Source: an uncultured candidate division Zixibacteria bacterium (lineage in GTDB: Bacteria; Zixibacteria; MSB-5A5; UBA10806; 4484-95). Taken from it: a stretch of 64,000 nt of DNA. The translations under genes and the position numbers were made by a program. The notes under the pieces were generated by a model. The model was not told where the DNA came from. It saw only the letters and a list, made by a program, of their open reading frames with translations, and searched no databases. This document shows positions 35,335-38,510 of the stretch, in pieces. The DNA lies in contig CAXXKA010000006.1 in NCBI GenBank assembly GCA_963668625.2, positions 1-64,000 of the forward strand, given 5' to 3'. Numbering within the stretch: the stretch's first letter is position 1; each line of letters starts with the position of its first letter.

Positions 35335-35478
35335 GATACACTCCGGATTTAATGCGGTTTGGTACTTTTATTTACATTGAAAAACTTTTCTTAGTAAGAT
35401 GTAGTTCCTTTAGTTACGAGCAAAATGCTATATACGGATAAGAAAGTAGTATTTAATTTTGATAAGGAAAAATATGGT

Positions 35479-36561
35479 ATGAAATCCAATCATGTCCTGG
35501 CAATCGGGGTTGCCATTGCCCTGACAGTCTCATCGCTTTCTTTCAGCTTACCGAAATTCACCGCCTCCTCGGAGCAGAAATGTAACCTTTGCCATGTAAG
35601 CCCCTCGGGCGGCGGTATGAGAAACGATTTCGGGGCGCAGTTTTTCGCTATGACAGAGCTGCCGGTTCATAAAACCGAGTTCGAGCAGATCGAGAAGTTC
35701 CAAACCCGAATATCCGATATTATCTCACTTGGCGCGGATATGCGCACATTATTCAACTATGATGAGGCAACCGATCAAGCCTCGTTCTTTCAGATGGAAG
35801 GGAACCTTCATGTATCGGCTCAACTTGATGACAAGTTCTCGCTGACAATGAGCAAAGGTATCTATGATGGTTTCGAGATTTACGGCATGGGGTACGTTTT
35901 ACCGATGCAGGGTAATTTCCGGGTAGGCAAGTTTCAACCATCCTATGGCTGGCGTTTTGCCGATCATACCTCATTCGTACGGGAGAAAATGCTGTGGTCG
36001 CCCGGCGCTACCGATACCGGTTTCGAACTGGGATTATTCCCGCACAAATTTTCGATTAACGTAGGTTTGTATAACGGAACCAGTGGTACTTTCGATAACG
36101 AGAACAGCAAAGCGCTGTCATCACGAGTTTCATTCCGTCATAAGATAGCCGGTATCGGTTTCGGAATCGGTGGATCTTATTGGATAAATAATCATGATAG
36201 CGGCGATGTTACGATGTTCGGTCCTTTCGGGTATATCAATCTGCTTCAAGGCAAGCTTATCTACATGGGAGAAATCGATTGGTTGAAGGATGAGAACGTT
36301 ATCGGCAAGCCTACCCGGGAGGCTACCACCAACAAATTAAGTTTCAAACTCAGGCAGGGGATATGGTTGAATGCCGGTTACGATTTTTACGATCCGGATA
36401 TTGACCTGGTTACCGGGCGAGTTAATCGTTATGGTATCGGAATCGAGTATTTCCCCTATGGTTTCTTGGAAATACAGCCGAATCTCTGGTATTATGAGGA
36501 TGATTTCGCCAGTGATGATAAATATATATTATTCAACACGCAGATGCATTTCTTCTTTTAA
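35479..36561 (+). CDS. Outer-membrane beta-barrel with N-terminal CxxCH heme motif
   Basis: Signal peptide, CNLCHVSPSGGG, alternating beta-strands, terminal Phe (MHFFF). Confidence 0.8.
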   Translation: MKSNHVLAIGVAIALTVSSLSFSLPKFTASSEQKCNLCHVSPSGGGMRNDFGAQFFAMTELPVHKTEFEQIEKFQTRISDIISLGADMRTLFNYDEATDQASFFQMEGNLHVSAQLDDKFSLTMSKGIYDGFEIYGMGYVLPMQGNFRVGKFQPSYGWRFADHTSFVREKMLWSPGATDTGFELGLFPHKFSINVGLYNGTSGTFDNENSKALSSRVSFRHKIAGIGFGIGGSYWINNHDSGDVTMFGPFGYINLLQGKLIYMGEIDWLKDENVIGKPTREATTNKLSFKLRQGIWLNAGYDFYDPDIDLVTGRVNRYGIGIEYFPYGFLEIQPNLWYYEDDFASDDKYILFNTQMHFFF

Positions 36562-36581
36562 AGGAGATGGTACGATAAAAG

Positions 36582-36800
36582 CATCTTGCTAATCTATTCT
36601 GTTGGTGTTAGAGCTTCGGTAATGAATTTCTAACTGGAGCGGATAGGTTATAGGCTGAACTGAATGCTTGAGGCCAGACCTCGTAAAGGAGATTAATCAG
36701 ACCTGTAACCGAATTGCCACCATAAGGCAAAGACCTTGAATAGGAGTTTGGTAGGCGCCGACAGAGAGTCTGCTCCAGTGATAACCATAGAATGGAGCAA
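36582..36800 (+). ncRNA. Predicted IS110 bridge RNA (ends approximate)
   Basis: Stem ggttatagg/cctgtaacc encloses a loop with TAAAGGAG (target match); second loop carries ACCAT and ATAGGAG (donor-junction matches) around inner hairpin aagg/cctt. Confidence 0.7.
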
Positions 36801-36804
36801 GAAG

Positions 36805-37818
36805 ATGAGGTACTTAGGAGTAGACCTTCACACAAACAGTTTGACCGTGTGTTGCCTGACAGCCGGTGGTCGGGAGAGGATCAAGGAGTATCGGCTAAAG
36901 GATCTAAAGGAATTTAAACGAGGATTAAAAAAGACGGATTGTGTAGCGGTTGAGGCCACTGGCAACACTCGTTATTTCGTTGATGAGATATCGCATTTGG
37001 TCAAGCGAGTTGTTGTCGTCGATCCGAACAAATTTGAGATAATCAAATCATCAGTCAGTAAGACGGATGAAAACGATGCCAGGAACTTAGCCTATTTTAT
37101 GAGCAAAGACATGTTGCCGAAAGCCCGATTAAAGACGAAAGATAAAGCGCAGATCAGTTCACTTGTTGGGACACGGGACAAGCTGGTCAAGTTACGTACA
37201 GCTTTGAAGAATAAAATACACAACATACTCAATCATCATGGTATCAAGAGTAAAAAGGAGGCCTACTCCAGCAACAAGAGTTTGGAGCGGGTTCTAAAGA
37301 TGAATTTTGATGAGGTTGTTTCTGTTGAGCTTGAGGTATTGGTTGATCAGATTCGCAGTTTGAATGAGGGGATAAAAAAGCTGGACAAACAGATAGAGGA
37401 TCAGGGTCGCAAGTTGAACGGGCATAAGAACCTGACCAGCATCAAAGGAATCGGCAGCAAATCAGCTACAGTGTTGCTTTCGGTAATTGGTGATGTTGCT
37501 GATTTTTCGGACAAAGATAAATTGGCCTCATATTTTGGCGTAGTGCCGCGAGTTTCCAATTCAAACGAGATTCAGCATCATGGTCGGATTACCAAGCGTG
37601 GTTCTAAGATTGGTCGGACTACACTGGTGCAGTGTACGCTTGTTGCCATACGATATAACCATTACTTGAGTAAATATTACAATCGTATAAAAAACCGTCG
37701 TGGCAGCGGTAAGGCTATCATTGCCACAGCCAGAAAATTACTGGGAATAATCTATGACACCTTGAAAAATAATTGGGTGTTTGAAGATTTCCCTAACTTT
37801 GTGTTAGCAAACAGATAA
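36805..37818 (+). CDS. IS110 family DEDD recombinase/transposase
   Basis: GVDLH, VEATG, KTDENDA (DEDD); C-terminal GIG...LASYFGVVPRVSNS...GRITKRG, ATARKL. Confidence 0.96.
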   Translation: MRYLGVDLHTNSLTVCCLTAGGRERIKEYRLKDLKEFKRGLKKTDCVAVEATGNTRYFVDEISHLVKRVVVVDPNKFEIIKSSVSKTDENDARNLAYFMSKDMLPKARLKTKDKAQISSLVGTRDKLVKLRTALKNKIHNILNHHGIKSKKEAYSSNKSLERVLKMNFDEVVSVELEVLVDQIRSLNEGIKKLDKQIEDQGRKLNGHKNLTSIKGIGSKSATVLLSVIGDVADFSDKDKLASYFGVVPRVSNSNEIQHHGRITKRGSKIGRTTLVQCTLVAIRYNHYLSKYYNRIKNRRGSGKAIIATARKLLGIIYDTLKNNWVFEDFPNFVLANR

Positions 37819-37856
37819 CTGAAATTTGGAGTAGACTTTTATCATAGGAGTAAATA

Positions 37857-38510
37857 ATGAATACGAAATATCATTTCAATATCGGTGTAGTCGCGCTAGG
37901 CGCAATCATACTTATGATGGCCTGCTCCGATAAAGGCAGCGACCCGGAGAACAGGGCGCCCGAAATCACCTCGGCTTCATTAGTGGAAGCTTATATCGAC
38001 TCATCATTTTCGTATACCGCTACTGCCGGCGACCCGGACGGCACCACGCCAGTATTGCATTTCGAGAATATTCCGAGTTGGCTCGATACCTCCGCTAACG
38101 TGATCTCCGGGACAGTCGCCGGTAACGCTTCCGATACCTCGTTCACGGTGATAGCCTCGGATGACTTTCTGGCGGATACGCTGGGAGTCATAGTCGATAT
38201 CACCACACCGGCGGTGGTTATTTCCTATACCTCATCAGTGCAGCCGATATTTAATGCTCGTTGTGCTAACTCTGGTTGCCACTTGAATGGAGATAACAGC
38301 GGAGGACTGAGGCTGGACAGCTATACGCTTCTGATGCAGGGTGGTGGTTCCGGCAGCGTAATCACACCGGGAAATTCCAATAACAGTTTACTTGTCAGCC
38401 GTATCGAGGGGACGGTCGGCCAGAGAATGCCGCTCGGCCAGTCGGCGCTGTCTTCTCAGCAGATCGAAACTATTCGCACCTGGATAGAGCAGGGCGCTGA
38501 AAATAATTAG
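37857..38510 (+). CDS. Lipoprotein with Ig-like domain and c-type cytochrome domain
   Basis: Lipobox MMAC; DPDG Ig-like domain; VQPIFNARCANSGCH, RMP and WIEQGA (Planctomycete cytochrome C-like). Confidence 0.82.
   Translation: MNTKYHFNIGVVALGAIILMMACSDKGSDPENRAPEITSASLVEAYIDSSFSYTATAGDPDGTTPVLHFENIPSWLDTSANVISGTVAGNASDTSFTVIASDDFLADTLGVIVDITTPAVVISYTSSVQPIFNARCANSGCHLNGDNSGGLRLDSYTLLMQGGGSGSVITPGNSNNSLLVSRIEGTVGQRMPLGQSALSSQQIETIRTWIEQGAENN

Follow-up and report, generated by a model that had tools for sequence, protein, structure and literature searches.

An insertion sequence of the IS110/IS1111 superfamily in a Zixibacteria genome that probably homes to Shine-Dalgarno sequences under RNA guidance

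Insertion sequences of the IS110/IS1111 superfamily are the closest described relatives of the element analyzed here, which lies in a 64,000-nucleotide (nt) stretch, hereafter the window, of an uncultured candidate division Zixibacteria bacterium (GenBank assembly GCA_963668625.2, contig CAXXKA010000006.1, positions 1 to 64,000). According to the sections of the IS621 papers on which we draw, this system has a CT core, and the two bases that follow its 7-nt right-hand guide act as handshake guides, directed at positions 7 and 6 of the other DNA (PMC11208160; PMC11208158). Excision is established to rebuild a promoter in IS621 and ISEc21 (PMC11208160; PMC11187229). Many IS1111 members are described as carrying their donor-binding bases in a multiloop (Durrant 2024, PMC11208160), and a reversed guide order is reported to separate IS1111-type from IS110-type seekRNAs (Siddiquee 2024, PMC11187229). 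The latter source also mentions rare IS1111 relatives with an upstream non-coding region, for example ISMtsp17. The window element is an intact member of the IS110 family and a variant of this RNA-guided superfamily, and it is probably an active insertion sequence that homes to Shine-Dalgarno (SD) sequences.

The boundaries of the element (Table 1) were set by its 11 full-length copies in the source genome (10 contigs, 4.3 Mb), which are 99.9-100% identical and all have different flanks. Three copies equal the window copy exactly, and eight carry a G-to-A change at the position equivalent to window 36854, the sole polymorphism among the copies, which replaces Cys17 of the recombinase by Tyr. 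No solo ends or mini-elements were found in this genome. All 11 copies follow AAGGAG and end in AGGAG, and insertion occurred without any further flank repeat. Since AGGAG is common to the left flank and the right end, the flanks alone locate the crossover only within these 5 nt; the geometry of the guides described below places the putative core at AG (36565-36566 and 37849-37850). A search of 30 related genomes at E <= 1e-40 did not find the protein of the element. Because the copies are near-identical and the protein was not found in these relatives, the element looks recently gained and recently active, which agrees with an earlier note on this DNA that had called it complete and likely active.

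The flanks of the copies indicate what is being targeted, a matter that the earlier note did not mention. Left flanks end in AAGGAG in 11/11 copies, with A at base -7 in nine. On the right side, an ATG follows the terminal ATAGGAG at a distance of 5-7 nt in 11/11 copies, and in nine of these it opens an open reading frame (ORF) of 116-758 amino acids (aa). Of the 1574 AAGGAG sites on both strands of the genome, 1563 are unoccupied, and an ATG lies 4-10 nt downstream of only 401 of these. Because both the AAGGAG flank and the ATG spacing are found in all copies, against 401 of 1563 free sites, we conclude that the element sits in SD sites, co-oriented with the downstream gene, and that GGAG is now provided, at unchanged spacing, by the end of the element.

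Related elements were collected for comparison of guides and ends. A protein search returned 4827 homologues at E <= 1e-3; the best 120 of these were 64-100% identical (100% being the window protein itself) and nearly all 337 aa long. A scan of species-representative genomes gave 80 loci with 52-64% identity, from Acidobacteriota, Omnitrophota, Planctomycetota, Spirochaetota, Nitrospira, Alphaproteobacteria and other groups. In the default search windows both ends were found by motif at 63 of 81 loci (80 relatives plus the window element). With wider windows 70/81 showed the same pattern of ends and flanks; six of the others were cut by contig ends and five lacked one end. In 53 of the 69 relatives whose right flank extends to 200 nt or more, a start codon 3-12 nt past the end opened an ORF. 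A match on a Mycobacterium plasmid (H2, 30.6% identity) was also inspected and had no SD-type ends.

Covariation between guides and DNA was counted on 57 distinct non-coding regions. In the target loop, the 3' strand contains AAAGGAGAU (36685-36693), which has the sense of the SD sequence and hence pairs with its bottom strand, and the last two bases of which, AU (36692-36693), match bases 1-2 of the left end. For positions -7 to -3 of the left junction this strand agrees with the DNA in 46/54, 55/56, 56/56, 57/57 and 56/57 relatives, and for positions -2 to +2 in 57/57, 57/57, 56/57 and 57/57. Positions -7, -6, -5 and +2 covary. Variant guides occur as TAGAGGAG, TTGAGGAG, TTAAGGAG, ATTAGGAG, AATGGAG and ACACGGAG, each with a matching flank, and the base after GGAGA in the RNA is U if the element starts with AT and C if it starts with AC (57/57). 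In a subclade of four loci (L065, L067, L070 and L077, from two Acidobacteriaceae metagenome-assembled genomes) the target has changed to CACGGAG/RCACGGAG with no downstream start codon. Both strands of the target loop are altered to match, and the 5' strand forms pairs at 4-6 of the 6 flank bases. Covariation thus shows the predicted pairing of AAAGGAG with the SD sequence's bottom strand, and the match of AU to element bases 1-2, in the manner of the handshake guides of IS621.

No part of the RNA varies more than the 5' strand of the target loop. In the register expected from the donor loop, G36666 lies opposite base 1 of the right flank and CU (36667-36668) can pair with the AG core. Over 71 insertion sites, 224 of 426 possible pairs are formed in this register, the best of eight, as compared to 190 +/- 9.7 when guides are permuted among elements; 2 of 2000 permutations reach 224. 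This suggests that the 5' strand can guide, but that it is only loosely matched in the members that home to SD sites.

A loose second half-site raises the issue of whether the SD association is mainly the work of selection, i.e., that the guide specifies AAAGGAG anywhere, that insertions within genes disappear and that only copies at SD sites persist, with the right end restoring translation. The well-supported guide covers no more than 7 nt plus 2, the 5' target strand is unconserved, and the genome still holds 490 free AAAGGAG sites, of which 139 are SD-like. On the other hand, the 11 right flanks pair with the 5' strand at 3.8 of 6 positions versus 2.54 at the 401 free SD-like sites (P = 0.0004), T stands at the first right-flank base in 9/11 copies versus 21% of the free SD-like sites, and across the family the predicted register performs best of the eight. 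As the main cause of the association, selection is therefore rather unlikely, and in any case it complements guidance by RNA and does not replace it.

Sequence matches also occur in the donor loop of the same molecule. Its 3' guide is identical to the right end at all seven positions in 57/57 relatives, 13 of which have ATGGGAG in both places, an A/G covariation at -5. ATAGGAG has six occurrences on both strands of the 64-kb window, and about 0.01 would be expected in 238 nt, a rarity that makes its presence there meaningful. On the 5' strand, GCCA (36716-36719) can pair with left-end bases 5 to 2 in 47, 57, 57 and 53 of 57 relatives (G-U allowed), and this register follows the presence of G, A, C or T at left-end base 4. 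For C36721, pairing with the core G is possible in 56/57. Covariation thus shows AUAGGAG to match the right end, and it shows the proposed pairing of GCCA with left-end bases 2-5. The two bases in the handshake position of this loop, UU (36747-36748), agree with right-flank bases 1-2 in 21/56 and 18/56 relatives, which is about chance. The UGGU that follows in the 3' strand may pair with ACCA (36719-36722).

The earlier note had proposed a simple internal donor loop, in which ACCAT (36719-36723) would pair with ATGGT, bases 1-5 of the left end, and ATAGGAG (36740-36746) corresponds to the right end, the two motifs flanking the hairpin AAGG (36724-36727)-caaaga-CCTT (36734-36737). These motifs are present in the sequence, the hairpin shows compensatory changes, and the assignment of ATAGGAG as donor guide holds throughout the family. 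In the window element ACCAT is a perfect complement of ATGGT, and the possible ACCA/UGGU helix could close such a loop; a 5-mer of this kind is expected about 0.2 times in 238 nt and is not significant alone. However, pairing in the ACCAT register was possible in 57, 45, 56, 41 and 25 of 57 relatives and ignores the changes at left-end bases 4 and 5, whereas GCCA, two bases upstream, covaries with the left end and scores 57/57 at base 4, where four different bases occur. The consensus fold moreover places the donor strands beside a hairpin in a three-way junction and not in an internal loop. The proposed pairing thus has the wrong register, and the internal-loop arrangement as a whole is improbable.

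When the DNA is read on the opposite strand, it matches the IS621 scheme at every base: in the two loops the 3' strands pair with CT + CCTTT (target) and CT + CCTAT (donor), and the AU next to the target guide with positions 7 and 6 of the donor. The core on the gene strand is accordingly predicted to be AG, and the guides are arranged as in IS621, but inverted with respect to the recombinase gene. As far as the IS621 accounts are used here, both systems have two guide regions that each read one strand beside a 2-nt core, CT in IS621 and AG on the gene strand here, a 7-nt guide of the top-strand type followed by two handshake bases, and a circle-junction promoter, which is predicted for the window element. 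They differ in that the 5' strand of the window element pairs with the strand written on top and its 3' strand with the bottom strand, so that the order is reversed, and in that one target half is barely specified.

The non-coding region of the window element is predicted to fold with a minimum free energy of -81 kcal/mol, with a z-score of -4.68 relative to shuffled sequences. A consensus structure of its core was derived with RNAalifold from 40 of the 54 distinct core sequences, leaving out 14 that are near-identical to retained ones. In this consensus 96.7% of cells are paired and 20/30 pairs show compensatory changes. None of 500 shuffles gave a structure as good, and slid controls reached 30-50% pairing. 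Helix P1 closes a three-way junction, from which a target arm (P2, P2b, an 11 x 10-nt internal loop and P3) and the donor hairpin P5 extend. An optional CACCA/UGGUG helix beside P5 is 82% paired and shows almost no covariation. The conclusion that the 5' non-coding region encodes a bridge/seek RNA is thus supported by comparative evidence. One could alternatively regard this region as a mere 5' untranslated region or regulatory leader of the recombinase, with the target chosen by the protein, and a search of Rfam 15 at E <= 1 over 36300-38100 indeed gave no matching family. Such a leader is extremely improbable, since in several lineages the loop bases covary with both ends and with the flanks, the 7+2 geometry of guide and handshake bases of IS621 is reproduced on the other strand, and the homologous region is reported to be needed as RNA in ISEc21 and IS621 (PMC11187229; PMC11208160).

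Joining of the right end to the left end would create the promoter TAGACT-17 nt-TACGAT with an extended TG that the earlier note had described, the spacer consisting of 13 nt of the right end and 4 nt of the left end (36567-36570). The 8-bp inverted repeat given there, GATAAAAG (36574-36581) and CTTTTATC (37837-37844), is present as well, and extends to 11 nt with one mismatch (36571-36581 and 37836-37846). Conservation of promoter and repeats was scored on 51 distinct end pairs. The best -10 sequence begins at left-end base 5 in 50/51 pairs, and in the same 50 a -35-like hexamer lies 16-18 nt upstream of it, in the right end. At least 7 of 12 consensus matches were found in 49/51, a TG precedes the -10 sequence in 42/51, and two Spirochaetota pairs have TTGACA-17-TATGAT. 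The inverted repeats are symmetric about the junction; their sequence differs between lineages and the two halves covary, with an exact run of at least 7 bp in 33/51 pairs. The predicted junction promoter and the subterminal repeats are thus conserved across the clade. In the integrated state no promoter-like site was found inside the left end, and reconstitution of the promoter by the window element itself would follow by analogy with its relatives.

The recombinase has an N-terminal PF01548 domain (DEDD_Tnp_IS110, E 1.4e-13) and a C-terminal PF02371 domain (Transposase_20, E 5.4e-22). In an alignment with IS621 and ISCro4, residues D7, E50, D88 and D91 coincide with the IGID, EATG and KTDxxDA motifs of IS621, and the serine motif reads GVVPRVSNSN, in which the serine is S253. 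These five residues are the putative catalytic residues. The residue after the serine is N, not G as in IS621, in both clade members checked, i.e., the window protein (WIN) and that of locus L059. In phmmer comparisons with IS1111-type proteins the recombinase scored 71-74 bits (ISEc11), 57-61 bits (IS4321) and 90-94 bits (ISKpn2), and with IS621 and ISCro4 50-51 bits. Among themselves, ISEc11, IS4321 and ISKpn2 score 206-248 bits, and ISEc11 scores 35-38 bits with IS621 and ISCro4. A search of E. coli K-12 for an IS110-group reference found none. Because scores of 57-94 bits contrast with 206-248 bits among the references, sequence similarity suggests that the clade is a deep branch outside the tight IS1111 cluster.

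Membership of the IS110 superfamily is apparent from the DEDD domain, the Tnp domain with serine motif, site-specific insertion without duplication, and the covarying structured RNA. Within the superfamily the element combines features of both groups, as the earlier note had recognized from the long non-coding region 5' of the recombinase gene (238 nt, with 32 nt between stop codon and right end) and the subterminal repeats. With IS621 and the IS110 group, as described in the sources used, it shares a DEDD and serine recombinase and a guide RNA that lies upstream of the gene, in the left end. It differs from them by inverted repeats of 8-11 bp, as compared to none or 2-3 bp, by donor strands located in a multiloop, and by a guide order that is opposite in both loops. 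The described IS1111 elements (ISEc11, IS4321/IS5075, ISKpn2) resemble it in their subterminal repeats of 7-17 bp and recombinases of 330-350 aa (PMC11187229), and also in guide order, but their RNA lies downstream and not upstream of the recombinase gene. The mixed architecture is thus real and goes further than the earlier note had recognized: guide order and inverted repeats are IS1111-like, and the RNA is upstream as in the IS110 group. RNA location and guide order, two traits that are jointly used to split IS110 from IS1111, come apart in this clade.

The following mechanism would accommodate these results. A circular copy would join the right end to the left end and thereby form a sigma-70 promoter, as in IS621 and ISEc21; the circle junction is expected as a single AGGAG between ...TATCAT and ATGGTACG.... 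From this promoter the left-end non-coding region would be transcribed into a structured RNA in which P1 closes the target arm and the donor hairpin. The DEDD/serine recombinase would then catalyze strand exchange at the AG core (which reads CT on the opposite strand, like that of IS621), and because of exchange at this position the element would land directly after GGAG, oriented with the downstream gene. Its ATAGGAG end would become the SD sequence of that gene, with the original spacing kept, and the gene would subsequently be transcribed together with or through the element. The spacer half-site before the ATG would be read weakly by the hypervariable 5' strand, which would let one guide RNA use many SD sites.

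Several points weigh against this interpretation. The end-motif search required GGAG/A[TC]G..A[TC]G and CAT[AG]GGAG, and the invariant positions are fixed by construction; evidential weight of the guide matches lies in the varying positions only. The relatives are not independent, and some covariations stem from few events (C at -5 arose once, and T once). In the donor 5' strand, pairing with left-end base 1 and with the core A is possible in just 12/57 and 6/57 relatives. The 5' strand of the target loop is unconserved and pairs weakly, with the 224 of 426 pairs given above against 190 expected. The occurrence of 11/11 copies at true SD sites may partly reflect the loss of harmful insertions. 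The transcript, its ends and its promoter are all deduced. A search of the 30 related genomes with the right-flank DNA gave no usable orthologous empty site (best match 69% over 261 nt). In contigs of four runs, which cannot show rare forms, no joint of right end and left end was present; over 36300-38100 these contigs collapse the element into one unitig of 1290/1291 nt at about 10-16x the depth of the flanks.

With no circle joint in contigs, where rare joints are invisible, and no polymorphic empty site, the copies might be taken as relics of an element that is immobile now. This is very improbable, given that all 11 are full length with intact ORFs and differ by at most one base, that their non-coding regions are identical, and that the absence from 30 related genomes at the threshold given above indicates that the element arrived and spread recently.

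The family already offers a precedent for homing to translation start signals. The IS110-family element IS900 of Mycobacterium avium subsp. paratuberculosis inserts at the motif CATGNNNNNNTCTCCTT, according to the source cited (PMC8141618). On the other strand this motif reads AAGGAGA-N6-CATG, which is an SD sequence plus a start codon and hence constitutes the precedent. In the older literature IS900 is said to lie antisense to the targeted gene and to use host signals for its hed ORF, whereas the window recombinase is co-oriented with the gene and the end of the element replaces the SD sequence. The literature examined describes no link between IS900 and a guide RNA. A bridge/seek RNA that targets SD sequences or an element end that restores them was not found in the literature searched, of which supplementary target-motif tables may contain one; the portions consulted of PMC11208160 and of a preprint (10.64898/2026.10.21.760802) describe no SD-targeting bridge RNA.

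If guidance operates as proposed, the element would carry a natural bridge/seek RNA that is programmed against a sequence preceding hundreds of genes in almost any bacterium, and an end that repairs the interrupted site, which would explain the spread of the clade over many phyla at little cost to the host. More tentatively, and as something possible rather than probable, this phylum-spanning clade may use the SD sequence as a universal safe harbor: one half-site is read by 7 nt and two handshake bases, the other strand drifts, the end mimics an SD sequence that keeps the gene translatable, and the anti-SD sequence of 16S rRNA might bind the RNA and couple transposition to the ribosome pool. 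This last part, prompted by the SD-like sequences in both RNA loops, is pure conjecture. For engineering, the element would offer a compact 337-aa recombinase whose 7+2 guide layout is defined and whose second half-site seems relaxed, and the 7+2 layout may help in studying how much pairing such enzymes need. For annotation, copies of this clade are to be expected exactly between an SD sequence and a start codon.

Table 1. Position of the element and its parts in the window
Feature	Position	Strand	Remarks
Left flank AAAGGAG	36560..36566	+	SD sequence that the downstream gene originally had; left target half; AG (36565-36566) is the putative core copy
Insertion sequence	36567..37850	+	1284 bp, right-hand AG core copy included; 11 full-length copies
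Left subterminal inverted repeat TACGATAAAAG	36571..36581	+	First six bases TACGAT (36571-36576) are the junction -10; TG at 36568-36569 gives the extended -10
Predicted 5' stem-loop of guide RNA	36609..36632	+	Single-sequence fold; variable-sequence hairpin at the same place in relatives
Bridge/seek RNA core	36636..36776	+	RNAalifold on 40 relatives
Helix P1	36636-36643/36769-36776	+	Consensus fold
Helix P2	36646-36654/36702-36710	+	Consensus fold
Helix P2b	36655-36657/36694-36696	+	Consensus fold
Target-loop 5' strand AACTGAATGCT	36658..36668	+	Hypervariable; probable weak guide for top strand of the spacer downstream of the SD sequence
Helix P3	36669-36673/36679-36683	+	Consensus fold
Target-loop 3' strand T-AAAGGAG-AT	36684..36693	+	7-nt guide 36685-36691; AU 36692-36693 are the handshake bases
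Donor-loop 5' strand GAATTGCCACCA	36711..36722	+	GCCA guide 36716-36719
Helix P5 (donor hairpin)	36723-36727/36734-36738	+	Consensus fold
Donor-loop 3' strand A-ATAGGAG-TT-TGGT	36739..36752	+	7-nt guide 36740-36746, right-end sense
Recombinase gene	36805..37818	+	337 aa; DEDD RuvC-like domain and Tnp domain
TAGACT	37832..37837	+	-35 of the promoter formed only on joining of right end and left end
Right subterminal inverted repeat CTTTTATCATA	37836..37846	+	Read directly; relatives compared
Right terminus ATAGGAG	37844..37850	+	Left donor half plus AG core 37849-37850; now the SD sequence for the ATG at 37857

The window copy lies between two co-directional genes, and the stop codon TAA of the upstream gene (36559-36561) overlaps AAAGGAG. 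This upstream gene of the interrupted operon (35425-36561) encodes a 378-aa protein with no Pfam match and a CxxCH motif near the N-terminus. The downstream gene (37857-38510) encodes a 217-aa lipoprotein-like protein with a PSCyt1 domain (Planctomycete cytochrome c, E 1e-9).

Some relatives show additional features near their ends. At locus L023 a second copy of the final 16 nt of the right end follows the element immediately, and the left flank of L047, TCATAGGAG, resembles a clade member's right end; in both cases the element seems to have inserted beside the remnant of an earlier copy. At five loci (L010, L011, L014, L016 and L045) the right end is about 340-358 nt long instead of about 30-90 nt, with the same terminal CATCATAGGAG and extra sequence after the recombinase gene.

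In the contigs of the sequencing runs, a joint from 36752 to 36809 and some loose ends derive from a related element in the same sample. In runs X1 and X2 this related element is apparent at 36732 and 36752-36809, with a different donor-loop sequence and a 56-nt 'skip' joint.

The source genome also contains a second, unrelated IS110-family element outside the window, about 1.45 kb long and present in five identical copies with a 352-aa ORF (G000 contigs C1:~622825-624267, C4:59231, C5:25155, C6:580873 and C8:130667). Its short 5' and approximately 290-nt 3' non-coding regions and its subterminal inverted repeats correspond to the canonical IS1111 layout. The left flanks end in ...CAGGAA and the right flanks begin with TTCCT..., which indicates a different target.

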